A stretch of 39,626 bases of DNA, taken from the NCBI GenBank assembly GCA_030426505.1, contig JAUHYN010000001.1, positions 1 through 39,626 on the forward strand. Reading direction: 5' to 3'. The stretch's first letter is position 1. Each line of letters starts with the position of its first letter. The notes under the pieces are model-generated. The model did not search any database and was not told where the DNA came from. It saw nothing but the letters and a program-made list of their open reading frames with translations. This document shows positions 2,290 to 25,179 of the stretch, piece by piece. Both the position numbers and the translations under genes were made by a program. This DNA is from a bacterium. Lineage in GTDB: Bacteria; Myxococcota; Kuafuiibacteriia; Kuafuiibacteriales; Kuafuiibacteriaceae.

Positions 2290-3180
2290 ATGGCCTTGGC
2301 GCGGACTGGCCAGCCCCGGAAGAAACGCCGGCGTCGCATTCGCTTCGACCTGCAGAAGGCGATGTTCGTCCTGCCGAACGCCTTCACGGTCTCGAGCATC
2401 TTCTGCGGCTTCTACGCCATCACCCTCTGTATGGGAGACGCCGAGCCCGGCGACCTGTACCGCGCCGCCATCGCGATCTTCTTCGGCATGTTCTTCGACA
2501 TGTTCGACGGCCGCGTCGCGCGACTGACGAAGACGCAGAGCGAGTTCGGCATGCAGCTCGACTCGCTCGCCGACCAGGTCTCGTTCGGCGCCGCGCCGGG
2601 CGTACTCCTGTGGCGGTGGTGCCTCTACGAGCTCGAGTTCATCGGGCTCTTCATCGCGTTCCTCTACGTCGCGTGCGGCGCGCTCCGCCTCGCGCGGTTC
2701 AACGTCCTCGCGACGCGTGAACCGGGCTCGTCGAAGTACTTCGTGGGCCTCCCGATCCCGCTCGCCGCGGGCACCGTCGTCGCGATGGTCATGGCGAGCT
2801 ACCCGTTCGGCGAACCCAAGTACGGCGGGCCGCCGAGCGTCGCGGCCGTCGCGCTCGTCCTCGCGGCGCTCATGGTGTCCAACGTGCGCTACCGCACGTT
2901 CAAGGATCTCCGCCCCTCGAAGAAGTCGGTCTCGATCGCCTTCGTGGTCTGCATCGTCTTCGCCGCCGTCTCCGCGCAGCTCAAGCCCACGGTGGCCCTC
3001 GCGGTGCTCTTCATCGGCTACATCTCGCTCGGCCTCACCGAGGAGGTCGTCTTCTTCAAGCGCCGCCGCGCCGAGAAGGAGGCCGTGCTCCCCGAGGACG
3101 ACGAGGGCGAGAGCGACGAAGAGTTCGACGACGACGACGACGACGAGGAAGAGCTCGAAGAGCCCCCCGCCCTCGCCTGA
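2290..3180 (+). CDS. pssA: CDP-diacylglycerol--serine O-phosphatidyltransferase (CDP-alcohol phosphatidyltransferase family)
   Basis: It carries the signature DGRVARLTKTQSEFGMQLDSLAD (D-G-x2-A-R-x8-G-x3-D-x3-D). The N-terminus is basic (RKKRRRR) and is followed by LPNAFT and several hydrophobic helices. Confidence 0.85.
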   Translation: MALARTGQPRKKRRRRIRFDLQKAMFVLPNAFTVSSIFCGFYAITLCMGDAEPGDLYRAAIAIFFGMFFDMFDGRVARLTKTQSEFGMQLDSLADQVSFGAAPGVLLWRWCLYELEFIGLFIAFLYVACGALRLARFNVLATREPGSSKYFVGLPIPLAAGTVVAMVMASYPFGEPKYGGPPSVAAVALVLAALMVSNVRYRTFKDLRPSKKSVSIAFVVCIVFAAVSAQLKPTVALAVLFIGYISLGLTEEVVFFKRRRAEKEAVLPEDDEGESDEEFDDDDDDEEELEEPPALA

Positions 3181-10245: not shown

Positions 10246-11184
10246 TCAGCGTTTCGCGGCGAAGCGCCCGACGATCGGGACGTGATCCGACAGCCCGTCC
10301 CACGGCCCGGGCGCGCCGAATGGGTGCGTGTCCTCGAAGTCGAGCCACCGGAGGCCAGGCCCCGCGAAGATGTGGTCGAGGCGCATCCGGTAGCGGAGGA
10401 ACCCCGCGGTCGGCCACGCCGTACGGAGCGCGTCGACCGAAGATCCAAGGACCTCCGGGAACGGGTCGCGCACGTGCAGCACGTCTTGGATCTGATCGTA
10501 GACCGGCGAACCCGGGAGCGAGTTGAAGTCGCCGACGATCAAGTAGCGATCGCTCGACTTGTTCTCCTCGACGAACGACGCGAGCGCCGCGATCTCCCGC
10601 GACTGGTTCTTGCCGTAGCCCATGCGCCCCGGGATTCGATAGAAGTCTTTTGAAAAGAACGCTGGCAGGGACAGGTGCGTGTTGAAGATGTCGACGTCCC
10701 AGCCGTCGCTCGTCGCGACCCGGACGTGCGCGCAGATCCGCGACTGCTTCCATCGCGCCGAGGGCCCCGCGCGCCGATGCGTGATCTCGCCGTGACCGCC
10801 GACCGCGGCGATCACACGATCGTCGTCGCGCACGAGGACCGCGAGGCCCGTCGTGTAGATGTGCGCCTTCCCGAGGCGATAGGTGTGCGCGGGGAAGTAG
10901 TGCGGGCGGTAGCGGTGATAGCGGTCGGCGTGGTGGAGCGCCCAGTCGAAGCGCTTCATGAACGCCTCGATCTGCGTCTCGCCCATGTGACTCGGCGTGT
11001 GCGAGAGCGTCGAGCGGAGCGAGCGCGTCTCGACCTCCTGCAGGCAGATCACGTCCGGTAGCGTGTCGAGCTTCGCGATGGCGTCGGTGATGCCGTCGAT
11101 CGCGATTCGCCGCGACGCGGCGCCGCGCATGGGCGCCACGTGTCCGAAGTACCGGACGTTGTATGTCATCACCCGGAGCGTCAC
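10246..11184 (-). CDS. endonuclease/exonuclease/phosphatase (EEP) family metal-dependent hydrolase
   Basis: EEP motifs present: MTYNVRYF, VICLQEVE, FNTHLS, GDFNS, DHIF, SDHVPIVGRF. The GTG start at 11184 lies 3 nt downstream of the preceding stop (11188-11190). Confidence 0.8.
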   Translation of the reverse strand: MTLRVMTYNVRYFGHVAPMRGAASRRIAIDGITDAIAKLDTLPDVICLQEVETRSLRSTLSHTPSHMGETQIEAFMKRFDWALHHADRYHRYRPHYFPAHTYRLGKAHIYTTGLAVLVRDDDRVIAAVGGHGEITHRRAGPSARWKQSRICAHVRVATSDGWDVDIFNTHLSLPAFFSKDFYRIPGRMGYGKNQSREIAALASFVEENKSSDRYLIVGDFNSLPGSPVYDQIQDVLHVRDPFPEVLGSSVDALRTAWPTAGFLRYRMRLDHIFAGPGLRWLDFEDTHPFGAPGPWDGLSDHVPIVGRFAAKR

Positions 11185-11187
11185 GGA

Positions 11188-12252
11188 TCAGTTCGGCGGG
11201 CGCGTGTCGTCGTAGATCCGGCGGAGCAGCTCGAGGCCCGGGCGCAGCTCACCGTCCGCGATGCGATGCACCGTGCGCTGGAGGATGTTGTTCACCGGGA
11301 CCGCGATCCCGTGCCGGTCCGCGCGCGAGACCACTTCACCGTTGAGGTAGTCGACGGCGGGGCGACGGCCGCGCTCGATCGCCGCGAGCATCGACGAGCG
11401 GAGCCGACGGTAGCGCGCGCCGACCGCGAGGAGCAGCGCGTGCTTCTTCACGAGTGAAGCGGAGCCGCTCGACGTCTTCTCTTGCTCGGTGAGCGCGAGC
11501 TTCTCGAGGTTGAGCGTCCCGGCGACCTTCTCGAGGCGGACCTCTTCTGCGCGCGCGACCTCGACCGTCTCGGTCATGACCTCCAGCGCGAGGCGCCGCA
11601 CGAAGCGGTGCGCGAGGAGGTTACCGAGGCGATCGCCGCCGACCGTCCCGAGCGTGGAGATCGCGCAGTTGATCGCGAGCTTGCTCCAACGCGCGCCGCG
11701 CAGGTTCTCCGTGATCTGCACGGGCCCGATGCACTCGAGCAGCGTGGAGAGCTCGTCGCAACGCTCTTCGGCGACGCCATCGAGGCACCCGAGCGTGAAG
11801 CCACCGGACGACGTGCGCTGGTAGCGACCAGGGCCGACCATCGACGCGCCCCAGGCGATGATGCCGCCGACCACGCGCTCGCGACCGACGAGCTGCGCGA
11901 CGCGCTCTTCGCAGAGGCCGTTCTGGAAGCACACCATCACGCCGTCCTCGGCGAGCGCGGCCATCGCGGTGCGCGCGGCGACTTCGACCTGCGGCGGTTG
12001 CGTGGCGAGGAGGATGTATTGGTAGCCGGGCCCGTCGATCGGCGGCTCGGCGTACGCGGTGCCGGGGATGATGCGGGTCTCGCCGTCGCCGCCGACCCAG
12101 AAGCCGCTGCGCTCGATGGAGTCGCGGATCGCCTGGTTCGTGCTGACCGGTGTGACGGTGCAGCCTTGTTCGATCAAGTGCGCAGCGACGATCCCACCGA
12201 TGCCGCCGAGCCCCATCACGAGGACGCGGGGGGACTGGTCGTCCGTGATCAT
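11188..12252 (-). CDS. ketopantoate reductase (PanE/ApbA) family NAD(P)-dependent oxidoreductase
   Basis: The track ORF is trimmed to ATG 12252, which overlaps the upstream stop as ATGA. It has a Rossmann motif (VLVMGLGGIGG), WSKLAINC, and the C-terminal SSMLAAIERGRRPAVDYLNGEVV block typical of the family. The position that I recall as the TE(I/V)D Glu seems to read AVD, so true ketopantoate specificity is doubtful. Confidence 0.8.
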   Translation of the reverse strand: MITDDQSPRVLVMGLGGIGGIVAAHLIEQGCTVTPVSTNQAIRDSIERSGFWVGGDGETRIIPGTAYAEPPIDGPGYQYILLATQPPQVEVAARTAMAALAEDGVMVCFQNGLCEERVAQLVGRERVVGGIIAWGASMVGPGRYQRTSSGGFTLGCLDGVAEERCDELSTLLECIGPVQITENLRGARWSKLAINCAISTLGTVGGDRLGNLLAHRFVRRLALEVMTETVEVARAEEVRLEKVAGTLNLEKLALTEQEKTSSGSASLVKKHALLLAVGARYRRLRSSMLAAIERGRRPAVDYLNGEVVSRADRHGIAVPVNNILQRTVHRIADGELRPGLELLRRIYDDTRPPN

Positions 12253-12602
12253 CCGAGCGGCGCTCCGACTTCGAACACCAAGTGCGGCGCGGGGCGGAAG
12301 TAGAAGATGCGCCAACCCCACTCGGTGTCTTCGGGGCGATCGTCCACGCGCAACTTCGACGCGAGGAGCTGACCGTAGATGCGATCGACCTCTTGCGGCG
12401 TCGCGACCTGGAGCGTCACGAGGACGTCGTTCTCACCGAGGTCGCCCGCCGGCGGGTGGTGCGCGACGGTGGAGTGGCCCATGTGGAAGGACAACAAACT
12501 CCCGTTGTCGATCTCCACTTGGCCGGAGACGATCTGACAGAATCTCTTCAGTGGATCGCCGTTCGTGTTGAACAGGCAGACCTGTGCGAGGTGGGCGGGC
12601 AT
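12249..12602 (-). CDS. small VOC (glyoxalase/bleomycin-resistance-like) family protein
   Basis: The track ORF is trimmed to ATG 12602 (MPAHLAQVCLFNTNGDP...). The size (117 aa) and beta-alpha-beta pattern fit the family, and GC3 is high. It is the first gene of a three-gene minus-strand operon. The family call is weak. Confidence 0.5.
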   Translation of the reverse strand: MPAHLAQVCLFNTNGDPLKRFCQIVSGQVEIDNGSLLSFHMGHSTVAHHPPAGDLGENDVLVTLQVATPQEVDRIYGQLLASKLRVDDRPEDTEWGWRIFYFRPAPHLVFEVGAPLG

Positions 12603-12915
12603 CGGCGTTCGCAGATACCTCCGATCGCAGCGTCCGGCTACCGGTCCGTCGGCCGGCCACGGCACACGGATTCAGTACCGAAATGTACGGGCGCTTCCGA
12701 CGCGTCGGTAGGTCAGGGATGGTTCGACAAAACGGTGGCTTGGCGGAAACCGTCTGAAAAGTCGGTGGGTTGTGCGGCCCCGCACGTTCCAAATGGCCGT
12801 TGACGGGCTGATCGGCGGGGGGCATATCAGCGGCGCCTTGACCACTGAATCGTCATTCATTTCCGACCCGTGCGCCGGGAATGCAGACCTCACGATGGAT
12901 ACGAAGGAGTACGGC
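12603..12915. promoter_or_regulatory. 313-bp divergent intergenic control region between the VOC-reductase-EEP operon and the FAAL-PKS operon
   Basis: This is the longest non-coding gap in the window and is visibly less GC-rich. An AAGGAG ribosome-binding site (12904-12909) lies 6 nt before ATG 12916. It also contains the palindrome CCGACGCGTCGG (12697-12708), GTAC-N6-GTAC (12675-12688) and a hairpin GTGCGG-CC-CCGCAC (12772-12785). No promoter can be assigned with confidence. Confidence 0.4.
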
Positions 12916-14727
12916 ATGACGCAGACGCTCGTCGACGGGCTCGCGGCCGCCGCGGCTATCGACCACAAAGGCTACACGTTCCTCGACGACCGCCTCGAGG
13001 GCGAGGAGTGGTCGTTCGCGCGGATCAGCGCGGAGGCCGACCGCCGCGCGCGTTACTTCCGTTCGCTCGGTCTCGAGAAAGGCGATCGCCTCGCGATGAT
13101 CGTCCCGGACGGTGAGGACTTCGTGCTCTCGTTCTTCGGCGCGGTGCGCGCCGGGATCGTTCCGGTCCCGATGTACCCGCCGCTCGCGCTCGGCAAGCTC
13201 GACAGCTACATCGACACGGCCGCGCGCATCCTCGGCACCGCCTCCGCGAAGATGCTGCTCACCACGAAGCAGGTCTCGCCGATCCTCTGGTCGCTGCTCT
13301 CGCGCGTCGAGACGCTCGAAGAGATCGTGCTGACCGAGAAGGTCCGCGACCACGACGACAGCACCATCACCGCGACGCTCGACGACATCGTCATCGAGCC
13401 GAGCGACGCGTGCTTCCTGCAGTTCACGTCCGGCTCCACGTCGGATCCGAAGGGCGTCATCGTCTCGCACGAGAACCTCGTCGCGAACGCGAACGCCATC
13501 ATGTACGACGGGCTCGACTGCGATCCGGAGACGGACCGCGGCGTGAGCTGGCTGCCGCTCTACCACGACATGGGGCTCATCGGCTTCGTGATCTCCCCGC
13601 TCATCGCGCACGTCCCGGTGGTGTTCATACCCACGCTGTCGTTCGTGAAGCGGCCGCCGGTGTGGCTCGACGTCGTCAACGAGTACCGCGGCACGATCAC
13701 CTTCGCGCCGAACTTCGCGTTCGGCCTCGCGACGAAGCGCGCCACGCCTCAGAAGCTCGCGCAGCTCGACTTGTCCTGCATCCGTGTCCTCGGGTGTGGC
13801 GCCGAGCCGATCAACCCGACCACGATGCGCGCGTTCGTCGACAAGTTCGCGACGGCCGGCTTCTCGCCCAACGCCTTGATGCCTTGCTACGGGATGGCGG
13901 AGGCGACGCTCGCGATGTCGTTCGATCGCCTCGATCGTCCGATGAACACGCTGACGATCGACCGCGACGCGTACGAGGGCGACAAGGTCGCCAAGGAAGC
14001 GGCCGAGGGCCTCGAGCTCGTCGGCTGTGGCGCGACGTTCCCGAACCACGACGTGGCGATCATGGGCGCGAAGGGCGAGCTGCTCGAAGACGGCCAGGTC
14101 GGCGAGATCGTGTTCCGCGGACCGAGCGTCACGCGCGGCTACTTCGAGAACGCCGACGCCACGAAGGATCTCCTCGCGGGCGGCTGGCTGCACACGGGTG
14201 ACCTCGGGTTCAAGAAGAACGGCACGCTGTACATCTCGGGGCGCCAGAAGGACCTCGTGATCCTCAACGGCCGCAACTACTACCCGCAGTCGATCGAGTG
14301 GGAGGTCGAGCAGATCGACGGGATCCGCAAGGGCAACGTCGTCGCGTTCTCGACCCCGGGCGACAGCTCGGAAGAGCTGGTCGTCGTCGCGGAGACGAAG
14401 GTCGCGGAGAAGGACCTCCTCGAGGCCGCGGTGAAGCGCCGTGTCCACGACGCGTTCGGCATCCGGCCGCGCGAGATCGTCCTGGTGGGCCCCGGAGGTC
14501 TGCCGAAGACGTCGAGCGGCAAGCTGCAGCGCCGAAAGACGAAGCAACTGTTCGAAGAAGGCACGCTCGGTACGGAGAACCGGTTGATGGGTTCGACGGC
14601 GACGCGGGTCGCTCTCGCGCGTCACCTGACGCGCTCCGCGTTCGCGCGGTTCACTCACAACATCAAGAAGACGGCGCGTCCGGCGAAGAAGCTCGTCGAC
14701 GTCGTGCGTCGCGCCGAAAGCAGGTAA
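12916..14727 (+). CDS. fatty acyl-AMP ligase (FAAL, FadD32-like)
   Basis: The start is chosen at ATG 12916 behind AAGGAG. FAAL-type blocks present: GDRLAMIVPDGEDFVLSFFGAVRAGIVPVPMYPP, FLQFTSGSTSDPKGVIVSHENLVAN (13426-13455 covers TSGSTSDPKG), WLHTGDLGF and LPKTSSGKLQR. Confidence 0.9.
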   Translation: MTQTLVDGLAAAAAIDHKGYTFLDDRLEGEEWSFARISAEADRRARYFRSLGLEKGDRLAMIVPDGEDFVLSFFGAVRAGIVPVPMYPPLALGKLDSYIDTAARILGTASAKMLLTTKQVSPILWSLLSRVETLEEIVLTEKVRDHDDSTITATLDDIVIEPSDACFLQFTSGSTSDPKGVIVSHENLVANANAIMYDGLDCDPETDRGVSWLPLYHDMGLIGFVISPLIAHVPVVFIPTLSFVKRPPVWLDVVNEYRGTITFAPNFAFGLATKRATPQKLAQLDLSCIRVLGCGAEPINPTTMRAFVDKFATAGFSPNALMPCYGMAEATLAMSFDRLDRPMNTLTIDRDAYEGDKVAKEAAEGLELVGCGATFPNHDVAIMGAKGELLEDGQVGEIVFRGPSVTRGYFENADATKDLLAGGWLHTGDLGFKKNGTLYISGRQKDLVILNGRNYYPQSIEWEVEQIDGIRKGNVVAFSTPGDSSEELVVVAETKVAEKDLLEAAVKRRVHDAFGIRPREIVLVGPGGLPKTSSGKLQRRKTKQLFEEGTLGTENRLMGSTATRVALARHLTRSAFARFTHNIKKTARPAKKLVDVVRRAESR

Positions 14728-14732
14728 CCACG

Positions 14733-15584
14733 ATGGGCTCCACAAAAGACGAAGTCCAAGTCAGCTACGACGTCTCCAACGAGTTCTTCCGCCTCTGGCT
14801 GGATGAGCGGATGAACTACACGTGCGGTGTCTTCGAGGGGACGGACAACCTCGAAGAGGCGCAGGTGAAGAAGCTGAACGTCATCCACGACTTCGCGAAG
14901 ATCACCCCCGAGAAGCGCGTGCTCGACATCGGCTGCGGCTGGGGCGCGAACATCGAGTTCCTCGCGATGGACAAGGGCGTGAAGGACGTCAACGGCGTGA
15001 CGCTCTCCTCGGCGCAGTTCGAAGAGATCCAGCGCCGCAACGTCCCCGGTGTGACCGCGGAGTGCGTGAACTTCTTCGACTACGAGCCGAAGGAGAAGTT
15101 CGACGCGCTGACGTCGATCTGCATGATCGAGCACGTCGCGTCGCCGGAGGAGGCCCGCAACGGCCGCGCGGTCGATCTCTACCGCCGCTACTTCAAGCGC
15201 GCGCACGAGCTCACGAACCCGGGCGCGTACTTCGGGCTCCAGACGATCCTCCGCAACTTCGTCCCGCGCACGAAGAAGGACATCCAGGACATCGGCTGGG
15301 TCACGTACAAGATCTTCCCCGGCGGCATCACCCCGCGCATGGAAGACATCGTGATGGGCGTGAACCCGTACTGGGAGGTCGTCGAGGTCAAGACGCGCCG
15401 CGAGGACTACGGCAAGACCTGCTGGCACTGGCGTGACCGCCTCCGCAAGAACGAGACGCTGATCCGCGAGAAGTGGGGCAACGAGGTCTTCGACGACTAC
15501 GACCGTTACCTGTCCACGTGCGTCACCGCGTTCGACAAGCACTACCAGTCGCTCGCGCAGTGGTCGCTCCGCCGCATCGACTGA
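14733..15584 (+). CDS. cyclopropane-fatty-acyl / mycolic-acid-type SAM-dependent methyltransferase (CMAS family)
   Basis: ATG 14733 lies 5 nt after the FAAL stop. Family motifs present: SYDVSNEFFRLWLDERMNYTCGVF and the SAM motif I VLDIGCGWG (14919-14945). The 283-aa length matches mycolate methyltransferases. Confidence 0.9.
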   Translation: MGSTKDEVQVSYDVSNEFFRLWLDERMNYTCGVFEGTDNLEEAQVKKLNVIHDFAKITPEKRVLDIGCGWGANIEFLAMDKGVKDVNGVTLSSAQFEEIQRRNVPGVTAECVNFFDYEPKEKFDALTSICMIEHVASPEEARNGRAVDLYRRYFKRAHELTNPGAYFGLQTILRNFVPRTKKDIQDIGWVTYKIFPGGITPRMEDIVMGVNPYWEVVEVKTRREDYGKTCWHWRDRLRKNETLIREKWGNEVFDDYDRYLSTCVTAFDKHYQSLAQWSLRRID

Positions 15585-15625: not shown

Positions 15626-15865
15626 ATGAACGATCAACAAATCATCGCCCTGTTCCAAGAGGCCGTCGCGGAAGTCGACGGCAACGTGAAGCTCGGCGAG
15701 ATGACGGCGGCCACCGAGCTCTCCTCGCTCGGCCTCGACTCGGTGATGACGATGGAAGTCATCGGCGTCATGGAAGAGAAGCTCAACGTTCGCTTCCCCG
15801 ACGAGGACCTCGCGACGCTCAAGAACATGGGCGATCTCACCAAGCTGATCCACCGCCTCAGCTGA
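15626..15865 (+). CDS. discrete acyl carrier protein
   Basis: ATG 15626 follows a GAAGGAA ribosome-binding site. The protein is 79 aa with the phosphopantetheine motif LGLDSV (Ser codon 15740-15742). Confidence 0.9.
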   Translation: MNDQQIIALFQEAVAEVDGNVKLGEMTAATELSSLGLDSVMTMEVIGVMEEKLNVRFPDEDLATLKNMGDLTKLIHRLS

Positions 15866-15879
15866 GTCAGGAACCGACC

Positions 15880-16686
15880 GTGGCCAAGAACCGAGCCTTT
15901 CGCGAGGCGATCTATCGCGAGTACATGGAGTTCTTCGAGCGAGCGGAGAGAAACCGCCGCTGGAGCGTCTTCACGGACATCCCGTGGGACCAGCTCGCCG
16001 AAGAGAACAACGACGAAGAAGCCGCGTTGAACGCGGAGACGTTCGTCGGCGTGGAGTCGTATCTCCCCGACTACGTGTCGCAGGGGATCAACGTCGTCCG
16101 CGAGATGTTCGGTCAGGCCTGGTTCTCCGCGAACTGGGGCTACGAGGAGTCGAAGCACGCGCTCGCGCTGCGCGAGTACCTCGTACGCTCCGGGCAGCGG
16201 ACGTCGGAGCAGATGTTCGACTACGAGGAAGAGATCCTCGGCAAGAAGTGGACGCTGCCCTTCGAGACCGCGCGGCAGATGACCTTCTACGGCGCCGTCC
16301 AGGAGCTCGCGACCTTCATGATGTACAAACATCAGGAGAAGCTCGCGCGCGATCGCGGCGACGAGGTGCTCGCCACGATCTACGGCTACGTGGGTCGCGA
16401 CGAGGCGGCGCACGCCGACTTCTACCGGAAGGTCACCCAGCTCGAGATCGTCGAGGACCGCGAAGGCGCGATCCGTGACATGGCGCTGGTCTTCAAGAAC
16501 TTCCGGATGCCCGGCACGCTCCTCGTCCCCGACTACGACGCGCGCACCGAGGTGATGCGCAAGACAGGCGGCGTGGACCGCGGCGTCTTCTTCAAGGAGG
16601 TGTGGTTCCCCACCCTCAAGAAGGTCGGCGTCACCCGCGAGGAGATCACGCGCGCCAGCGCCGAGCTCCGCAAGTCCGCCGCCTGA
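15880..16686 (+). CDS. soluble di-iron acyl-ACP desaturase family protein
   Basis: There are two EXXH motifs: EESKH (16147-16158) and DEAAH (16402-16413). Single Glu ligands sit at the expected spacing (NAETF about 37 residues before the first motif, QELATF 33 residues before the second). The start is GTG at 15880. Confidence 0.85.
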   Translation: MAKNRAFREAIYREYMEFFERAERNRRWSVFTDIPWDQLAEENNDEEAALNAETFVGVESYLPDYVSQGINVVREMFGQAWFSANWGYEESKHALALREYLVRSGQRTSEQMFDYEEEILGKKWTLPFETARQMTFYGAVQELATFMMYKHQEKLARDRGDEVLATIYGYVGRDEAAHADFYRKVTQLEIVEDREGAIRDMALVFKNFRMPGTLLVPDYDARTEVMRKTGGVDRGVFFKEVWFPTLKKVGVTREEITRASAELRKSAA

Positions 16687-16727: not shown

Positions 16728-19700
16728 ATGACCATGACCTCAGACCCCATCGCGATCGTCGGCATCGGTTGCCGCTTCCCTCGGGCCAAGGACGCCGACC
16801 AGTTCTGGAGCCTCATCGCGCGCGGCGAGACCACGTTCTCACGCGTGCCGGCGGACCGGTGGAATCACGAGGCGTTCTACTCGAAGAGCCAGCGCGACAT
16901 CGACAAGGCGTGGGTCGACGCCGGGTCGTTCCTCGAGGAGTACCGGGAGTTCGCCGCGATGCACTACGGCATCGCGCCGCGGCGCCTTGAAGTCATGGAC
17001 CCGCAGCAGCGCCTCCTCATCGAGATGACGCGCTCCGCGATTCAAGACGCGGGCTACGAGCTCAAGGGGTTCGAACGCAAGAACACCGGCGTGTACGTCG
17101 GCGTCTCCATCAGTGAGTTCCAGAGCATCATCCAGGCGCGCATGGGCGCCATGCGCATGATCAGCGGTGAGTTCGGCGGCGCGGCCGGGAACCAAGAACT
17201 CATCGACGCCATCCTCGCCCTCTCCGCCAACATCGCGCCGATCCGCGCCTTCACGCTCAGCGGTAATCTCACCGCGCTCGCCGCCGCAGCCGTCGCGCAG
17301 GTCCACGACCTGGGCGGACCGGCCTACACACTCGACTCCGCGTGCGCCTCGGCGTCGCTCGCCGTCCACGACGCGGTCACGCAGCTGCGCGCGCGGCAGG
17401 TCGACGCCGCCGTCGCGGGCGGCGCGTACGTGAACCTCGCGCCCGACAACCTCGTCGCCTTCACGAAGATCGGCGCCATCAGCTCGACCGGCGCGTGCCG
17501 CCCGTTCGAAGCGCGCGCGGACGGCTTCGTCCAGAGCGACGCGGTCGGCCTCGTGTTCCTCAAGCGCCTCGAAGACGCGCTCTCGGACGGCGACCGGGTC
17601 CACGCCGTGATCCTCGGGTCCGGCGCCAACAACGACGGCCGCGGCGAAGGCCCGATGACGCCGAAGGTCGACGGCCAGCTCGACGCGCTGAAGCGCGCGT
17701 ACGCCGATGCAAACGTCTCGCCCGCGTCCGTCTCCTTCTTCGAGGCGCACGGCACCGCGACCACGATCGGCGACCCCGTCGAAGTCGAAGCGCTCTCCAC
17801 CCTCCTCGCCGCGCACGGCGTCGAGCAGGCGGACGCCCCGTGGCTCGGTTCGGTGAAGGGCAACATCGGCCACGCGATGTCCGCCGCCGGCATCGCCGGG
17901 CTGATCAAGGCGATCAAGGTCGTCGAGCACCGCACCGCGCCGCCGCAGCCGAACTTCGAGGCGCCCAACCCGGGCCTCGCGTTCGAGACGCGCCCGATCC
18001 GCGTCAGTGACCGCACCACCAAGCTCGAAGCTCGCCCCGATCGCTTGCGCGTGGGCGTGAGCTCGTTCGGCTTCGGCGGGACGAACTCTCACCTCGTCCT
18101 CGAAGAGGCGCCGGCCGCCGAGCGCCGCGTCGCCGTCGCCGTCCCACTCGCGACCGTCGCAGAAGAAGTCCTCCCGGAGGCCGTCCTCGTCACCGGCGCC
18201 ACGCGCGAGCTCCTCGACGCGCACCTCGGCGCGCTCGCCGACTGGCTCGAGGGCGATGGCGCCGAGTCCTCGCTCGCCGACGTCGCGTACACGCTCAACG
18301 CGCGCCGCACCCGCGAGCGCTTCCGCGCTGTCATCGGCGCGCGCTCCGGCGCGGAGCTGATCGAAAACCTCCGCCGCGCGGCGAAGGGCGAGGTGTCCAA
18401 GGACGTCGCCTTCTTCGACGTCGGCCTCGCCGACGACGCGCCGCAGAAGATCGCCTTCCTGTTCCCCGGCCAGGGCGCGCAGAAGGTCGGCCTGCTCGGC
18501 GCGCTCCGCGCGCGCTTCGCGTCGTTCGGCGCGACGTTCGACGCACTCTCCGCGGGCGCGAACCAACACCTCGACCGCCCCCTCGCGGACTACCTGTTCG
18601 CCGAAGACGCGACCGAGGACGCCCTCACCGCGACCGAGGTCTGCCAACCCGCGATGGCCGCGCTCGGCCTCACGCTCGACCGCCTCCTCGCCGATGCCGG
18701 TGTGCGCCCCGACGTCACGCTCGGCCACAGCCTCGGTGAGTTCGCCGCGCTCGCCGCGGGCGGCGCGATCGATCCGGCCGCCGCCGTCGAGCTCGTCGCG
18801 AAGCGCGGCGCCGCGATGCGCGCGCTCGACCTCGAGGACACCGGCACCATGGCCGCCGTGATGACCGACGCCGACACCGCGCGCGAGATCGTGCGGGACG
18901 TCGAGGGCGTCGTCGTCGCGAACGTGAACCACCCGCGCCAGACCTCGATCTCCGGCACCACCGCGGGCGTGAAGGCCGCGCTCGAGGCGTTCGCCGCGCG
19001 CGGCGTCGACGCGAAGCCGCTGTCCGTCTCGCACGCCTTCCACTCGCCGCTCCTCGACGGCGTCGACACCGCTGTGCGCGGGCTCCTCGACGACGTCGCG
19101 CTGAACGCGCCCTCCACCGTCGTCGCCTCGTGCATCGCCGCCGAACCGCACGGCGGCCCCGACGCGATCCGCGAAGTGCTCGTCGCGCATGCGACCGCGC
19201 CCGTGGAGTTCGTGCGCGGCCTCGAGCAGGCCCGCGACGCCGGCGCGACGGTGTTCGTGCAGGTCGGCGCCGGCGCGATGCTCACCAGCTTCGCCCGCGC
19301 GACGCTCGGCGGTGCGCACACGCTCGTCACGCTCTCCACGAGCGACGACGACGGCGGGTACGAGTTCCTCCGCGGAGTCGCGACGCTCGCCGCGCTCGCC
19401 GCGCCCGTCGACTTCGAACCGCTCTACGCCGGCGAAGGCCGCCGCGTGGTCTCGCTCCCCGAGACGCCGATCGAGCGGCAGTCGTACTGGCCCGTGAAGG
19501 ACCAGCCGCAGCCCATCGCCGAGATGACGCCGCTCGCGCGCGAAGGCGTGCGTTCGGTCGCGCTCGCCGCGGCCGCGAACGTCGACACCGAGCGCGCCGT
19601 GCCGCAGTCGCTCGTCGAGTTGTTCGCGCAACAGAACCGCCTCCTGCAGCAGCAGGCGGAGGTGATGGCGCAGCAGAACCGCTTGCTCCTCGGCGGGGAC

Positions 19701-22700
19701 GCCGCCGGGTTCGACGCGGTCGCGATCGCGCCCGCGCCGACGGCGCTCCCCACGCCCGCGCCGATCGCCGAGCGCGTGGCCGCGACGATCGCGGAGCCCG
19801 AGCCCGCTGCGCCGGCACCCTCTCCCGAACCCGTCGCCGCCGAAGTACCCGCGGACGACGACGTGCGCGAACAGGTCTTCGGGATCGTCGCGAAGATCTC
19901 CGCGTTCCCGCGCGACAGCCTCCGCGGCGAGCAGCGCCTCGTCGACGAGCTCGGCTTCGACTCGCTGATGGTCGCCGACCTCGGCGGCGCGCTCGAGAAC
20001 TCGTACCCGAACCTCGGCGGCCTCCCGCCCGAGCTGTTCAACCTGAAGACCACGCTCCTCGACGTCGCGAACCACGTCGTGAAGACGGTGACCAACGCGC
20101 CCGCGACGCTGGCCGCCGCGGCCGAAGAGATCGAGGAGGCGCCGAAGGTCCCCGCCACCGCGTACCGCGTGAAGGCGGTCGTCCGCTCGCGCCCGGAGCT
20201 CGGCTTCGCGGACGTCACCGGTCAGACGTGGCTCGTCACCGAAGACGACACCGAAGCGAGCGCGGCGATCAGCGCCGAGTTGTTGAAGCGCGGCGCGACG
20301 GTCCTACGGGTGCGCTTCGCGCGCGACGGCGTCGCGGCGACCGCGCGCCTCGTGAAGAACGCGCTGAACCTCTGGCCGCAGTCGTTCGTCGACGGGCTGC
20401 CGGAGGCGATCGCGAACGTCGGCGTCACGCTCGACGGCTTCGTCCACGCGGCGTCCCTCGGGCTCGGCGACGCGTCCGACTTCGACAACCCGGTCGTCGT
20501 CCTGCACCCGCTCGTCGCGCAACTCGACGTGAAGCGCCTAGCGGTCGTCACCGGCCTCGGCGGTCGGCTCGGCCTCGAGCGCAGCCCGCGTCTCGCGCGC
20601 AACATCCTGCAGAGCGCGCTCCACGGGTACACGAAGTCCATCGCGCGCGAGCGCCCGGACACAATCGTCCGCGCCCTCGACGTCGACGACACGCTCCCCG
20701 CGGCGCAGATCTGCCGCTGGGTCGTGGACGAGCTCCTCGGCGCCGACCGCACGACCGCCGTCGGCTTCGACGGCGAACGTCACGTCGCCGAACTCGTCGC
20801 GGCGCCGGTCGGGCTCCCCGCGAAGCGCAAGATCGACAAGGACGACGTCGTCGTCATCACCGGTGGCGCCGGGGAGATCGGTTCGGTCGTCGCGCGCTGG
20901 GTCGCCGCGCAGAAGCCGAAGGCGCTCCTGCTCGTGGGCCGCCGCGCCCAGGATGACCGCATCTCGAAGCTGCTCGCGGAGCTCGGCGACAAGGCGATCT
21001 ACGTCGCCGCCGACGCCGCCTCGACCGAGGCCCTCCGCGCCGCCACCAAACCGCACCTCGAAGCGTTCGGGCCAGTGACCGTCGCGTTCCACGCGGCCGG
21101 CGTGATCGACGACGCCCCCGCCACGAAGAAGTCGGTGGCCAGCGTCGAGCGCGTGATGAACGCGAAGGTGAAGGGGATGCAAGCTCTCTTGCAGACCTTC
21201 CCGACCCTCCGCGACCTCGTGCTGTTCTCGTCGTGGGCCGGCCACTTCGGCAACGCGAGCCAGTCCGACTACGCCGCCGCGAACGAGCTGCTCGATCGCA
21301 TCGCGATCGCCGGCGTCGGCGCGACGCGCGTGCTCTCGCTGGCGTGGCCGCCGTGGAGCTCCACCGCGATGGTCGCGAGCATCCCGAAGGCGCTGCAGAA
21401 GGCGATGGCCTCGCAGGGCGTGACGTTCCTCGACGACGACGAGGGCCTCGAGCGCCTCGAGCGCGCGTTCGCGGAAGGAGCGCAGGGCCTCGTGCTCGTC
21501 GGCCGCGACCTCCCCGTCCGCGACACCGCGGTGCGCGCCGAGGTCGACTTCGCGACCGCCACGCACCCGTACCTCCTCGATCACAAGCTCAACGGGCGAC
21601 CCGTGGTCCCGCTCGCGTCGGCGACCGACCTCATCGCGTGGTCCTTCTCCGAGGCCGCGAGCACCGCCGGCTCGATGGTGGTGACGGACCTCGACTTGGT
21701 GCGCGGCGTGTTCGGCGACGACACGGTTCAGGCCACGCTCACCGGGCGCCGCACCGGCGAGACCGAGGAGGCGCGCGTCGAGCTCGCCGTCGGTGACTCC
21801 ACCGCGTACCGCGCGAGGGTCGCGACCGAACGCCTCCAGGATCCGCCCGAGCTCATCACGCTCACGGGCACCGTCGAGACGCCGCAGACCACGCTCGATC
21901 GCTTCTACGAGGCGCAGACCTTCCACGGCCCGATGCTCCGCGGCATCGAGTCGATCGAGCGGATGACCACGAACGGCATCAAGGGGATCGTGCGCACGTC
22001 GAAGATCGGCGAGTGGATCCTCGGGACGGAGCGCACCGGCTGGACGATCGATCCGCTGGTGGTCGACGGCAGCTTCCAGCTCGCCGGCTACTGGCTCTTC
22101 GCGCACCACGGCCGCGCCGGGTTCCCGATCGGCTTCGACCGCTTCGTGCTCGTGCGCCCATTCGGCGACCAGCCGATCCACTGCACGATCGAGCTCGACG
22201 CGATCGGCGACGACACGTTCGCCGGGCGCATCGTCTACACGAACAGCTCCGGCCAACTCTTCGGGTGGGTCGACGGGATCCGCGGACGCTTCGCGGAGCT
22301 CGCGCCGCAGACCAAGAAGAACGGCCACGAGACCGTCGTGGACGACGTCGCGCGCGAGGCGTGGGACATCGGCTCGTTCCCGGAGGTCGAGCTCCTCGAG
22401 CAGCGCTTCGAGATGGCGCGCCTCATCGGGCTCGACAACCCGTACTTCGCGATGCACGCGGGGACGGCGAAGGACACGAGCGTCATCGACGGCGTCGAGA
22501 TGCTCAACTACTCGAGCTACAACTACCTCGGCTTCTCCGGTCACCCGGAGGTCGTCGCCGCCGCGCAGGAGGCGATCGAACGGTACGGAACGTCCGTGTC
22601 GGCGAGCCGCGTCGCGTCGGGCGAGCGCCCGCTCCACCGCGACCTCGAGACGAAGATCGCGGACCACGTCGGCGTCGACGACTCGATCGTGTACGTGAGC

Positions 22701-23597
22701 GGACACGCGACGAACGTCACGACGATCGGGCACATGTTCGATCGCAACGACCTCATCGTCCACGACTCGCTGATCCACGACAGCATCCTCCAGGGCATCT
22801 ACCTGTCGGGTGCCACGCGTCGCCCGTATCAGCACGGCGACCTCGACGCCCTCGAGCGCACGCTGTCGCAGGTCAGGAAGAACTACCGCCGCGTGCTGGT
22901 GTGCGCGGAGGGGATCTATTCGATGGACGGCGACATCTGCGATCTGCCGCGGCTCATCGACATCAAGAAGCGCTACAAGGCCCTCCTCCTGATCGACGAA
23001 GCGCACTCGATCGGGGTCCTCGGCCACCAGGGTCGCGGGATCGCGCATCACTTCGACGGCCTCGACCCGCGCGACGTCGATCTGTGGATGGGCACGCTGT
23101 CGAAGTCGTTCGCGAGCTGCGGTGGCTACATCGCCGGCAGCGAGAAGTTGGTGCGGTACCTGAAGTACACCGCGCCGGGCTTCGTGTACTCGGCGGGTAT
23201 CACGCCGCCGAACGCCGCAGCGGCGCTCAAGTCACTCGAGCTCATGCAGAGCCACCCGGAGGTCGTCGAGCGACTCCGCGCCCGCTCGCGGTTCTTCCTC
23301 GACTACGCCAATCAGCGCGGCCTCGACACCGGGCTCGCGATGGGTGCGGCCGTGGTGCCCGCGATCATCGGCAACTCGATGGACTGCATGAAGGTGAGCC
23401 AGGCGCTCAAGAAGCGCTGCATCAACGTGCAACCGATCGTGTACCCGGCCGTCGAGGACGACGCGGCGCGCCTGCGCTTCTTCATCAGCGCGCTGCACTC
23501 CGAGGAGCAGCTTCGGCACACCGTCGATGTGTTGGTGGAGGAGCTGGCGAAGGTCCGTGCGGAGAGTGGCACGGACCAGCCGAGTGCTTCGGCGTAA
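16728..23597 (+). CDS. PfaA-like type I polyketide synthase fused to an alpha-oxoamine synthase: KS-AT-ACP-KR-DH-AONS (2289 aa)
   Basis: The track ORF is trimmed to ATG 16728 (MTMTSDPIAIVGIGCRFP). Approximate domain spans: KS 16743-18110 (Cys 17343-17345; EAHGTATTIGD; KGNIGH); AT 18447-19332 (GHSLGE Ser 18729-18731; HAFH 19032-19043); ACP 19863-20097 (GFDS Ser 19962-19964); KR 20169-21522 (GGAGEIG; YAAAN Tyr 21270-21272); DH 21534-22302 (HKLNGRPVVP His 21582-21584; DGSFQ); AONS 22374-23594 (YNYLGF, IDEAHS, GTLSKSF Lys 23103-23105). Confidence 0.95.
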   Translation: MTMTSDPIAIVGIGCRFPRAKDADQFWSLIARGETTFSRVPADRWNHEAFYSKSQRDIDKAWVDAGSFLEEYREFAAMHYGIAPRRLEVMDPQQRLLIEMTRSAIQDAGYELKGFERKNTGVYVGVSISEFQSIIQARMGAMRMISGEFGGAAGNQELIDAILALSANIAPIRAFTLSGNLTALAAAAVAQVHDLGGPAYTLDSACASASLAVHDAVTQLRARQVDAAVAGGAYVNLAPDNLVAFTKIGAISSTGACRPFEARADGFVQSDAVGLVFLKRLEDALSDGDRVHAVILGSGANNDGRGEGPMTPKVDGQLDALKRAYADANVSPASVSFFEAHGTATTIGDPVEVEALSTLLAAHGVEQADAPWLGSVKGNIGHAMSAAGIAGLIKAIKVVEHRTAPPQPNFEAPNPGLAFETRPIRVSDRTTKLEARPDRLRVGVSSFGFGGTNSHLVLEEAPAAERRVAVAVPLATVAEEVLPEAVLVTGATRELLDAHLGALADWLEGDGAESSLADVAYTLNARRTRERFRAVIGARSGAELIENLRRAAKGEVSKDVAFFDVGLADDAPQKIAFLFPGQGAQKVGLLGALRARFASFGATFDALSAGANQHLDRPLADYLFAEDATEDALTATEVCQPAMAALGLTLDRLLADAGVRPDVTLGHSLGEFAALAAGGAIDPAAAVELVAKRGAAMRALDLEDTGTMAAVMTDADTAREIVRDVEGVVVANVNHPRQTSISGTTAGVKAALEAFAARGVDAKPLSVSHAFHSPLLDGVDTAVRGLLDDVALNAPSTVVASCIAAEPHGGPDAIREVLVAHATAPVEFVRGLEQARDAGATVFVQVGAGAMLTSFARATLGGAHTLVTLSTSDDDGGYEFLRGVATLAALAAPVDFEPLYAGEGRRVVSLPETPIERQSYWPVKDQPQPIAEMTPLAREGVRSVALAAAANVDTERAVPQSLVELFAQQNRLLQQQAEVMAQQNRLLLGGDAAGFDAVAIAPAPTALPTPAPIAERVAATIAEPEPAAPAPSPEPVAAEVPADDDVREQVFGIVAKISAFPRDSLRGEQRLVDELGFDSLMVADLGGALENSYPNLGGLPPELFNLKTTLLDVANHVVKTVTNAPATLAAAAEEIEEAPKVPATAYRVKAVVRSRPELGFADVTGQTWLVTEDDTEASAAISAELLKRGATVLRVRFARDGVAATARLVKNALNLWPQSFVDGLPEAIANVGVTLDGFVHAASLGLGDASDFDNPVVVLHPLVAQLDVKRLAVVTGLGGRLGLERSPRLARNILQSALHGYTKSIARERPDTIVRALDVDDTLPAAQICRWVVDELLGADRTTAVGFDGERHVAELVAAPVGLPAKRKIDKDDVVVITGGAGEIGSVVARWVAAQKPKALLLVGRRAQDDRISKLLAELGDKAIYVAADAASTEALRAATKPHLEAFGPVTVAFHAAGVIDDAPATKKSVASVERVMNAKVKGMQALLQTFPTLRDLVLFSSWAGHFGNASQSDYAAANELLDRIAIAGVGATRVLSLAWPPWSSTAMVASIPKALQKAMASQGVTFLDDDEGLERLERAFAEGAQGLVLVGRDLPVRDTAVRAEVDFATATHPYLLDHKLNGRPVVPLASATDLIAWSFSEAASTAGSMVVTDLDLVRGVFGDDTVQATLTGRRTGETEEARVELAVGDSTAYRARVATERLQDPPELITLTGTVETPQTTLDRFYEAQTFHGPMLRGIESIERMTTNGIKGIVRTSKIGEWILGTERTGWTIDPLVVDGSFQLAGYWLFAHHGRAGFPIGFDRFVLVRPFGDQPIHCTIELDAIGDDTFAGRIVYTNSSGQLFGWVDGIRGRFAELAPQTKKNGHETVVDDVAREAWDIGSFPEVELLEQRFEMARLIGLDNPYFAMHAGTAKDTSVIDGVEMLNYSSYNYLGFSGHPEVVAAAQEAIERYGTSVSASRVASGERPLHRDLETKIADHVGVDDSIVYVSGHATNVTTIGHMFDRNDLIVHDSLIHDSILQGIYLSGATRRPYQHGDLDALERTLSQVRKNYRRVLVCAEGIYSMDGDICDLPRLIDIKKRYKALLLIDEAHSIGVLGHQGRGIAHHFDGLDPRDVDLWMGTLSKSFASCGGYIAGSEKLVRYLKYTAPGFVYSAGITPPNAAAALKSLELMQSHPEVVERLRARSRFFLDYANQRGLDTGLAMGAAVVPAIIGNSMDCMKVSQALKKRCINVQPIVYPAVEDDAARLRFFISALHSEEQLRHTVDVLVEELAKVRAESGTDQPSASA

Positions 23598-24054: not shown

Positions 24055-25179
24055 ATGTTCGTGACGCTCGTCGCAGCGCACCTGGCCGCCGCCTCGGCGC
24101 CGGGCCTACCGACCAACCGCACCTGGGATCGCCTGGACGGGTCGCGGGACGCCCGCGCCCGCTTCGTCCAGGTGGCGGCGGAGCTCGGCGAACAGACGAT
24201 CGTCCTGGACGGCGTTCAGTGGGACGCCGACCGATTCGCGAAGCTCGCCCGCGCCCACCCCGACGAGCCGTTCGTGCGGGTCGTGCGGGAGGCGATTCGT
24301 CGGCCGCTCGATCTCGAGGACTTCCTCTACTTCGTCGACGACGTGATGGTGGCCACGGCGACGAAGACGCGCTCCATCTGGTTGCCCGCGAGTCGCGCGC
24401 GGCGCGCTGGGATTTACGTCCACCCCGACGACGTCTTCGAAGGCGGCTCGCCGCGTCGCTACGGGGAGAAGGGCGACGCATTGGAGACGGACCGCCCGCG
24501 GCGGATCCGTCGCGTGGGGCGCGCCAAGGACGGCGAGCCGCTCGGGCCGCGGTGGTGCCGGCGGTTCCCGAACCCATCGGGGCGGCGCGCGAAGCTGGCG
24601 GCGCTGCGTCGGCTCAACCCCTCGAAGACGTTCCACCGCCGCGTGTGGAGCCTGATGCGGCAGCTGAAGCGCCAAGGCGCGTCGGTGCTGCTCTACTCGA
24701 CCGTCCGGGATCGGCGACGCGGGTACCTGATCTGGGGCGCATACTCGATGAGCCGGAAGACGACGGAGGCCGAGGTCGACGCGCACGTCGCGCTCCTCGA
24801 TTCGCTCCGCACCGAGTGGGACCTCGACGTCCCGATCCGGTGGCGACACCCCGACGGCTGGGAAGCGACGGTCGAAGCCGCGCGTCTGATGGCGGACGCG
24901 TACCACGTCGCGTTCGCGACGCGCTCCGGTGCGGAGTCGTCGAACCACTACGACGGCGTGGCGGTGGACCTGAACGTGTTCGGGCTGCCGCGATCGCTCA
25001 CGCTGACCGCACCCGACGGCGCGAAGCGGACGTTCGATCTCTCGGGCGCGGACGAGCCCCGGGATCTCAGCCTGACCCCGAGGCTCATCGAGTGGATCGA
25101 GGAACACTTCGGGATGTCGAAGCTGCGCGAGGACTACCCACACTGGGAGGACGCGCTGTCGCTCGCGAAGGAGGAGTGA
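24055..25179 (+). CDS. protein with C-terminal LAS/peptidase-M15-like (VanY / hedgehog-fold) metallopeptidase motifs
   Basis: It has SSNHYDGVAVDL (the S-x-H-x2-G-x-A-x-D type zinc motif) and a distal His in EDYPHWED. The N-terminal ~200 residues are very basic (RRIRRVGRAK, RRAKLAALRR) and I could not recognise them. Confidence 0.65.
   Translation: MFVTLVAAHLAAASAPGLPTNRTWDRLDGSRDARARFVQVAAELGEQTIVLDGVQWDADRFAKLARAHPDEPFVRVVREAIRRPLDLEDFLYFVDDVMVATATKTRSIWLPASRARRAGIYVHPDDVFEGGSPRRYGEKGDALETDRPRRIRRVGRAKDGEPLGPRWCRRFPNPSGRRAKLAALRRLNPSKTFHRRVWSLMRQLKRQGASVLLYSTVRDRRRGYLIWGAYSMSRKTTEAEVDAHVALLDSLRTEWDLDVPIRWRHPDGWEATVEAARLMADAYHVAFATRSGAESSNHYDGVAVDLNVFGLPRSLTLTAPDGAKRTFDLSGADEPRDLSLTPRLIEWIEEHFGMSKLREDYPHWEDALSLAKEE

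Follow-up and report, generated by a model that had tools for sequence, protein, structure and literature searches.

A candidate lipid operon of Myxococcota built around an enoylreductase-free polyketide synthase with a serine palmitoyltransferase-like release domain

The stretch of DNA analysed here, called the window throughout, comprises 39,626 nucleotides of contig JAUHYN010000001.1 (assembly GCA_030426505.1) from a member of the Myxococcota, and encodes a polyketide synthase (PKS) that ends in an AONS domain, a pyridoxal phosphate (PLP)-dependent domain of the alpha-oxoamine synthase (AOS) type. This PKS-AONS fusion gene occupies 16728-23597 of the forward strand as a single intact open reading frame (ORF) of 2,289 aa, uninterrupted from the ATG at 16728 to the stop codon at 23595-23597, in a window of ~69% G+C whose coding regions are strongly biased towards G or C at third codon positions (GC3). 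The same frame stays open upstream as far as a GTG at 16602, but we place the start at 16728 because homologues begin with the methionine of MTMTSDP. Pfam annotation yields, in order, ketoacyl-synt (1.7e-64), Ketoacyl-synt_C, KAsynt_C_assoc with a CurL-like linker, Acyl_transf_1 (1.1e-37), a weak PP-binding match (3.3e-3), KR (5e-34), PKS_DH_N (6.4e-7) and Aminotran_1_2 (5.8e-45). The order ketosynthase (KS), acyltransferase (AT), acyl carrier protein (ACP), ketoreductase (KR), dehydratase (DH) and AONS, which an earlier note had read from the letters of this DNA and proposed for checking with profile models, is thereby borne out.

Motif positions within 16728-23597 likewise reproduced those of the earlier note exactly. 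Numbering residues from the methionine at 16728 as 1, the KS domain (16743-17960; ketoacyl-synt and Ketoacyl-synt_C) carries Cys206 (TGC, 17343-17345), His341 in EAHGTATTIGD (17748) and His382 in KGNIGH (17871). The AT domain (18456-19310) has Ser668 in GHSLGE (18729-18731) and the malonyl-type motif HAFH at residues 769-772 (19032-19043). A helix-like conserved segment followed by a Pro/Ala-rich linker (19590-19870) leads to the in-line ACP (19872-20078), with its phosphopantetheine Ser1079 in GFDSL (19962-19964). The KR domain (20850-21359) begins its GGAGEIG motif at 20862 and contains K1480, S1502, Y1515 (in YAAAN, 21270-21272) and N1519. Next comes the DH domain (21510-22340), a double hot-dog with H1619 (21582-21584), P1628, HGP at 1733-1735, D1780 (in DGSFQ, 22065) and Q1784. 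The protein closes with the AONS domain (22353-23597), in which YNYLGF (22518), the His of SLIHDS, IDEAHS (His at 23004) and GTLSKSF, with the PLP lysine at residue 2126 (23103-23105), are all recognizable. Two copies of the heptad AQQNRLL do begin at 19626 and 19668, as the earlier note had remarked, but they do not stand as a meaningful repeat. We rejected the pair as a repeat or docking element, given that both copies sit in the helix-like segment common to the family (consensus roughly LVALF.xQ..LL..HAEI..xQN..L), which is conserved between AT and ACP in all homologues inspected; the Pro/Ala linker behind it varies in length and sequence. The conserved segment as a whole (19590-19700) may act as a helix for dimerisation or docking.

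More than 100 full-length homologues (clusters at 90% identity) have the same layout, so that the six-domain architecture lies far above chance. These proteins of 2,180-2,500 aa have an identical Pfam set and are 89-41% identical to the window protein; the closest (89%) comes from a Logan assembly, and the best among species-representative genomes (~62%) from Myxococcota metagenome-assembled genomes (MAGs). Named sources are Myxococcota, Myxococcaceae, Archangium and 'Deltaproteobacteria' MAGs, nearly all of them Myxococcota, and the ten clusters examined by name all derive from MAGs. The family is thus large and mostly myxococcotal, yet NCBI names its members only 'aminotransferase class I/II-fold PLP-dependent enzyme'. 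Genomic context was compared across six annotated neighbourhoods, around homologues of 77% to 42% identity, and across 80 genome loci; individual loci are given below as L numbers.

Every catalytic feature of a reducing type I PKS module was found in the window protein: the KS Cys-His-His set, AT GHSxG, the ACP serine in DSL, the KR Lys-Ser-Tyr-Asn tetrad, and HxxxGxxxxP with DxxxQ in the DH. In an alignment of 118 full-length homologues, the KS Cys, His and His and the AT GHSLGE motif are invariant, HAFH is retained in 116 of the 118, the ACP motif G-F-D-S-L-M is near-invariant, and the KR and DH residues listed above are invariant or nearly so. The final Asp of the KR xDD motif (D1462) is also invariant, and Phe takes the place of Trp eight residues before the catalytic Tyr. 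An xDD Asp without that Trp marks a B-type KR, which goes with D-3-hydroxy products and trans double bonds; the motif thus indicates a B-type KR, consistent with a predicted trans-2-enoyl product. Since the KR-DH region, searched against PDB sequences, matched KR entries only and no DH, the DH was assessed by modelling. AlphaFold predicted a canonical double hot-dog with a pLDDT of 92.9, for which Foldseek gave the CurJ DH as best match, along with the GphF, CurK, AlnB and PpsC dehydratases. Relative to the window protein, no homologue in the alignment contains an insertion of more than 100 residues, and therefore none carries an enoylreductase (ER) in cis. No ER-type gene lies in the window, and none recurs across the six annotated neighbourhoods. 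The earlier reading of KR and DH without ER accordingly withstands comparison with the whole family; neither a KR or DH stripped of catalytic residues nor an AONS lysine outside the PLP pocket, which the note had named as counting against it, was encountered.

The AONS domain meets the description of an alpha-oxoamine synthase in its Aminotran_1_2 fold, T-x-S-K lysine, PLP-stacking His and D-x-A-H motif. Searched against PDB sequences, it matched Sphingobacterium multivorum serine palmitoyltransferase (SmSPT) best (246 bits), followed by Arabidopsis LCB2a (219), Escherichia coli KBL (216) and human SPTLC2 (211), with BioF, ALAS and CqsA far behind. The model of the domain (pLDDT 87.8) adopts fold type I and superposes on SmSPT (3A2B/8GUH), its best PDB match in fold as well as in sequence, with a TM score of 0.92-0.95 and an rmsd of 2.0-2.6 Å (TM 0.90-0.95 to SPT); the lysine that the earlier note had assigned to PLP does fall in the PLP motif. 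In SmSPT, PLP and the substrate carboxylate are contacted by His138, Ser185, Asp210, Ala212, His213, Thr241, Ser243 and Lys244 (PMC10196870), and all eight are identical in the query when aligned to 8GUH. The AONS catalytic residues are invariant in 25 aligned family members. SYNYLGF, EGIYSM(D/E)G, DEAHSIG and KSFxSCGGYIAGS are common to the query and plant LCB2a; at the same positions E. coli KBL reads instead ANNYLGL, DGVFSMDG, DDSHAVG and KALGGASGGYTA. The NCBIfam models discriminate less: bioF (341 bits), SPT-CFB (321) and KBL (305) all score below their cut-offs, and membership in a named serine palmitoyltransferase (SPT) family is not reached by SerpalmtaseCFB (321, cut-off 640), BetaP (249, cut-off 500) or AlphaP (190, cut-off 670). 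On these comparisons the domain is SPT-like, and L-serine is its most probable substrate.

The PKS-AONS gene is the fifth of a tight forward-strand operon with gaps of 5-41 nt, a context of priming and accessory genes that the earlier note leaves out. The operon opens with a fatty acyl-AMP ligase (FAAL; 12895-14727), the presumed starter loader, identified by Pfam AMP-binding plus a DIP2-like C domain and by the NCBIfam fatty acyl-AMP ligase model (525 bits). A CMAS-family S-adenosylmethionine-dependent methyltransferase follows (14733-15584; Pfam CMAS 6e-56; NCBIfam cyclopropane fatty-acid synthase-like, below cut-off), then a free-standing ACP of 79 aa with the motif LGLDS (15626-15865; PP-binding 3.6e-11), and a soluble diiron acyl-ACP desaturase-like protein with two ExxH motifs (15880-16686; FA_desaturase_2 9e-20; PDB acyl-ACP desaturases 1e-11). 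Nearly every Myxococcota locus with sufficient upstream sequence has FAAL and ACP genes immediately before the PKS. We treat the other two as accessory; a CMAS-like gene occurs in 16 loci and a desaturase-like gene in four (L001, L002, L005 and L013). In M. xanthus, Stigmatella and Sorangium, López-Lara and colleagues described AasR-like and AcpR-like genes that form an operon 'in different genomic contexts' (PMC9386255); this operon is probably the FAAL and ACP pair seen here.

Divergently oriented from the operon, an ApbA/PanE-family NAD(P)H reductase (11188-12252, reverse strand; Pfam ApbA and ApbA_C; TIGR00745 156 bits, above cut-off) is a candidate 3-ketoreductase. It adjoins a gene for a small conserved protein of 117 aa (12249-12602, reverse strand), divergently upstream of the FAAL gene, for which tblastn found relatives of 58-92% identity in L001, L004, L005 and L006 and whose C-terminus bears a conserved DD.PE(D/S)T(E/D)W motif. 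An impression by eye that this protein is glyoxalase/VOC-like was dropped, as no Pfam model matched. The reductase and the 117-aa protein belong to the closer clades, with the reductase at the same position in L001, L004 and L005; an SDR-family (short-chain dehydrogenase/reductase) gene occupies that position in one Myxococcaceae locus. On the other side of the reductase lies an endonuclease/exonuclease/phosphatase (EEP)-family gene (10246-11184, reverse strand), also present in L001; in L003 an EEP gene follows the PKS at a distance of ~7 kb. The EEP fold family includes neutral sphingomyelinases. In L005, a GpsA-like glycerol-3-phosphate dehydrogenase gene adjoins the ApbA-like reductase gene.

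Downstream of the PKS, a 457-nt spacer and a 374-aa ORF (24055-25179; GC3 0.90, no Pfam or NCBIfam match) precede two further genes. The ORF is missing at the syntenic position of L001, which suggests that it entered the operon recently. The first of the two genes encodes a PigA/RedW-like acyl-carrier-protein dehydrogenase (25228-26376, forward strand; Pfam ACAD; PigA 437 bits against a cut-off of 500, RedW 429, both below cut-off), and the second, overlapping it by 16 nt, a stand-alone adenylation (A) domain of the nonribosomal peptide synthetase type (26361-27842, forward strand; TIGR01733 337 bits, above cut-off). The best single-domain PDB matches of the A domain are the PltF prolyl ligase and LgrA A2, each at ~245 bits, and its A5 motif reads NVYGQPEAN as against NxYGPTE. 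A glycine-type assignment based on an LgrA score of 455 bits was rejected, that score being the sum over two LgrA A domains of which the best single one ties with PltF. PigA and RedW are prolyl-carrier-protein dehydrogenases, but no dedicated peptidyl carrier protein (PCP) lies near the pair. Both genes directly follow the PKS in the 77% identical relative L001, the dehydrogenase gene also does so in L002, and the pair does not stand beside the PKS in more distant family members; we treat it as a putative clade-specific accessory.

Farther out, a CDP-alcohol phosphatidyltransferase gene (2290-3180, forward strand) precedes the PKS operon by 10-14 kb and may encode a head-group transferase for the lipid product. 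It has relatives in L005 (1-686, ~7 kb upstream, 48% identity) and in L073 (~15354, reverse strand, 36%), there near a Planctomycete fusion of FAAL, ACP and AONS. Phospholipid head-group genes occur near some family members, as this phosphatidyltransferase in the window and in L005 and as PLD-like and PhoD genes in L007. The cluster is flanked by an asparagine synthetase gene (28519-30354, forward strand) and a penicillin-amidase-family gene (32716-35571, reverse strand), which are syntenic in L001 and are therefore probably ordinary neighbours outside the pathway. The longest ORF of a RecQ-like helicase (36175-38568, reverse strand) overlaps an FG-GAP repeat protein gene (37758-39257, reverse strand); as no helicase domain starts before residue 289, the true start of the helicase is probably near 37700.

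Taken together, the reading we favour, with slightly less than even confidence, is that an ER-less, single-module type I PKS with SPT-like release forms a 3-keto-4-ene long-chain base and is the core of a Myxococcota lipid operon. The conserved FAAL and ACP imply that the starter would be a FAAL-loaded fatty acid: the FAAL would adenylate a long-chain fatty acid and transfer it to the free-standing ACP, and in the present clade the desaturase-like and CMAS-like proteins would probably tailor the chain. The KS would then condense the acyl chain once with malonyl carried on the in-line ACP, itself loaded by the HAFH-type AT; the B-type KR would give a D-3-hydroxyacyl-ACP, and the DH a (2E)-enoyl-ACP. 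In the dimeric PLP domain, a small amino acid, of which L-serine is the likeliest, would form a quinonoid that would attack the thioester and decarboxylate, releasing a 2-amino-3-keto-4-ene long-chain base, whose C3 keto group the neighbouring reductase (ApbA/PanE-like here) would reduce to give a sphingosine-type base. Domain content and order, invariant catalytic residues, the missing ER, the conserved FAAL and ACP, and the SPT-like character of the PLP domain are observed; from them we infer that extension runs for a single round, that serine is the co-substrate, that the chain is released from an enoyl thioester, and what the accessory genes contribute. One step further, and more tentatively, Myxococcota may possess 4E-unsaturated bases made without a delta-4 desaturase, their double bond installed by the KR and DH of the PKS on a FAAL-primed chain before the SPT-like domain fused to it carries out the Claisen release; in the present clade the desaturase-like and CMAS-like proteins would introduce a second double bond and a methyl group as a branch. 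In fungal 9-methyl-sphingadienine, the C9-methyltransferase belongs to the CMAS family, and the proposed unsaturated, methyl-branched product would parallel that lipid by convergence.

Relatives of the AONS domain in another phylum offer the strongest indirect argument for an enoyl substrate. Outside Myxococcota, the closest AONS domains are those of Planctomycetes (53-59% identity), with few elsewhere, and they occur in two architectures. A Planctomycete FAAL-ACP-AONS fusion of 1,182 aa is encoded at L062 7709-11257, and a KS-AT-DH-ER-KR-ACP-AONS fusion of 2,562 aa at L070 3581-11269 in Blastopirellula marina DSM 3645, where a phosphopantetheinyl transferase (PPTase) gene precedes it. Both are widespread in Planctomycetes, with single matches in Nostoc, Kibdelosporangium, Kuenenia and a Clostridia MAG. 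A 2013 survey already included an A-CP-PLP protein from B. marina (PMC3870968). Like the Myxococcota form, these proteins fuse a carrier-protein-dependent AONS to acyl-supply machinery, but they have either no PKS module or a canonical, fully reducing one with an ER and an AONS-adjacent ACP. Judged by sequence, one AONS clade is thus paired with no extension, with ER-bearing full reduction or, in Myxococcota, with a module that appears to stop at the enoyl stage. Where saturation is wanted, Planctomycetes have the ER built in; the Myxococcota KS-AT-ACP-KR-DH module would therefore add two carbons together with a 2-ene. In our analysis this comparison backs the earlier note's proposal of a 2-enoyl thioester as the substrate for release.

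Several points weigh against this reading. We know of no AOS enzyme shown to accept an alpha,beta-unsaturated thioester. A single KS cycle is a prediction that sequence does not fix, and the same domain order in the enediyne PKSE works iteratively. A trans-acting ER may be encoded elsewhere in the genome, which would be compatible with the view that a 40-kb window affords. The amino-acid substrate is uncertain because the NCBIfam SPT, BioF and KBL scores lie close together and below cut-off, and the candidate 3-ketoreductase is not conserved family-wide among the compared loci.

Some of these points have counterparts in specific alternatives. The module might cycle repeatedly on a FAAL-derived or short starter, giving a conjugated polyenoyl-ACP that the AONS domain would release as an amino-keto polyene. 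Fully competent KR and DH domains without an ER would suit such a polyene synthase, as would the partial match to the PfaA model (570 bits) and a domain order that also occurs in the iterative enediyne PKSE and in PfaA. Against these stand the conserved, dedicated FAAL and ACP, which favour a long-chain starter, a sister FAAL-ACP-AONS architecture that requires no extension at all, and a KS-AT region nearest to non-iterative cis-AT modules such as CurL and GfsA; we regard repeated cycling as unlikely. Equally improbable in our estimate is a PLP domain that takes glycine, L-alanine or another amino acid and forms amino-enone lipids of the 1-deoxy or 1-nor type in place of sphingoid bases. The substrate pockets of SPT and KBL resemble each other too closely for amino-acid specificity to be read off their residues, and SPT-fold enzymes accept Ala and Gly, albeit poorly (PMC10196870). 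The bioF, SPT-CFB and KBL models fit about alike, and KBL trails SPT by only 30 bits in the PDB search. The signature motifs, however, fit SPT catalytic subunits (SmSPT, AtLCB2a) and not KBL, and the head-group genes in some neighbourhoods argue for serine because head-group attachment needs the serine-derived C1 hydroxyl.

A different product, a saturated 3-ketosphinganine analogue, would result if an ER acted in trans in the manner of PfaD or LovC and the PKS merely elongated the chain by two carbons. Trans-ERs are generally known for PfaA-type and some iterative PKSs, and only 40 kb of this genome is visible. Yet the search for ER-type genes described above turned up none in the window and none that recurs in the six annotated neighbourhoods, the related AONS fusions that require an ER have it in cis, and two-carbon elongation by itself gives no reason for a module of 1,900 aa, as a FAAL can select chain length; we give this arrangement little credence. 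Least credible is a starter confined to the present clade, a pyrrole-2-carboxyl group supplied by the A domain and the PigA/RedW-like dehydrogenase and carried on to a PigJ/PigH- or RedX/RedN-like pyrrolyl amino-ketone. The PigA and RedW scores of the dehydrogenase, the tie of the A domain with PltF and the position of both genes directly after the PKS in L001 point that way. Set against them, the gene pair accompanies the PKS in none of the more distant members whereas FAAL and ACP are conserved, a separate PCP is missing, the A5 core motif is atypical, and ring closure of the 4-hydroxy-2,2'-bipyrrole-5-methanol (HBM) type needs a beta-keto group, which would not survive KR and DH, which makes a pyrrole starter very doubtful.

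Bacterial sphingolipid synthesis is under active study. If the favoured reading holds and an enoyl chain is indeed released with serine, the locus would represent a desaturase-free route to the sphingosine 4-ene and, as far as we know, the first alpha-oxoamine synthase to act on an alpha,beta-unsaturated thioester. FAAL, ACP and PKS-AONS would make a compact three-protein system. Side by side, the FAAL-ACP-AONS, fully reducing PKS-AONS and ER-less PKS-AONS proteins amount to a natural experiment on the recombination of release domains with reductive loops. PKS-derived sphingoid bases and AONS-terminated PKSs are already known; the present system differs in the fusion of an AOS to the PKS, an ER-less KS-AT-ACP-KR-DH module before the AONS, priming by FAAL and ACP, and a predicted unsaturated substrate. 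In the literature searched, mostly without subscription papers, we found no description of a KS-AT-ACP-KR-DH-AONS protein or of a myxobacterial PKS-SPT fusion.

Among known systems, PfaA, HglE and the enediyne PKSE have the same KS-AT-ACP-KR-DH order, in which the ACP precedes KR and DH. The label 'PfaA-type' used in the earlier note consequently stands for domain order but not for sequence membership: the PfaA model of polyunsaturated fatty acid synthases (NCBIfam TIGR02813) reaches 570 bits where its cut-off is 1010, and neither the window nor the related loci contain PfaB-, PfaC- or PfaD-like genes. PfaA moreover has tandem ACPs, compared with a single ACP here, where the C-terminus is an AONS domain. 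In sequence, the KS-AT region most resembles modular PKSs of the cis-AT kind, CurL and GfsA among them. The enediyne PKSE continues after KS-AT-ACP-KR-DH with a C-terminal PPTase, has an associated thioesterase and works iteratively. In the present protein the AONS domain stands at the C-terminus with no PPTase, and no PKSE thioesterase is present.

AONS domains also end other assembly lines. The prodiginine enzymes RedL, RedN and PigH and the saxitoxin enzyme SxtA turn beta-keto or short acyl chains into pyrroles or a saxitoxin precursor. As in the protein described here, a C-terminal AONS off-loads an ACP-bound acyl group by decarboxylative Claisen condensation with an amino acid; they differ in that none is known to have KR-DH between ACP and AONS. 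The AOS entries of a published survey cover such AONS domains at the ends of carrier-protein lines (PMC3870968). The prodiginine cassette for 4-methoxy-2,2'-bipyrrole-5-carbaldehyde (MBC) joins a prolyl-AMP ligase, its own PCP and a prolyl-PCP dehydrogenase (PigI/PigG/PigA) to a KS and an ACP-AONS that take a beta-keto thioester (PigJ/PigH). The locus does not match it: the PigA-like ACAD protein scores 437 bits against 500, a dedicated PCP is missing and both KR and DH are present.

Closer in chemistry are systems in which an SPT-like enzyme acts on a carrier-bound chain. In Caulobacter-type SPT systems, the dedicated acyl-ACP synthetase AasR and the ACP AcpR feed SPT (PMC9386255); as here, a synthetase-like enzyme loads a specialised ACP that supplies an SPT-fold enzyme, but there is no PKS module, the SPT is free-standing and the product is saturated 3-oxosphinganine. 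Fum1/Fum8 (fumonisin) and SphB/SphA (sphingofungin) likewise rely on a PLP-dependent AOS to release a polyketide and give sphinganine analogues, but with a highly reducing iterative PKS, a separate AOS and alanine or aminomalonate as substrate. Among characterised systems, the nearest is the PfSgaA/PfSgaB pair from Pseudomonas fluorescens MYb115, in which an iterative PKS and an SPT-active AOS produce saturated C24-C28 sphinganines, a PKS route to sphinganines demonstrated only in 2025 (PMC12134224). There, as proposed here, a type I PKS feeds an SPT-like AOS to make sphingoid bases outside canonical SPT, and a nearby reductase has been proposed for the 3-keto group. An SgaAB-type cluster pairs a PKS gene with an SPT-active AOS gene and yields sphingoid bases; in the window, a PKS and an SPT-like AOS occur as one fused protein with a predicted sphingoid product. 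Compared by description, PfSgaA and PfSgaB are separate proteins, whereas the Myxococcota enzyme is fused and ER-less, has the order KS-AT-ACP-KR-DH and would be primed by a FAAL and a free-standing ACP.

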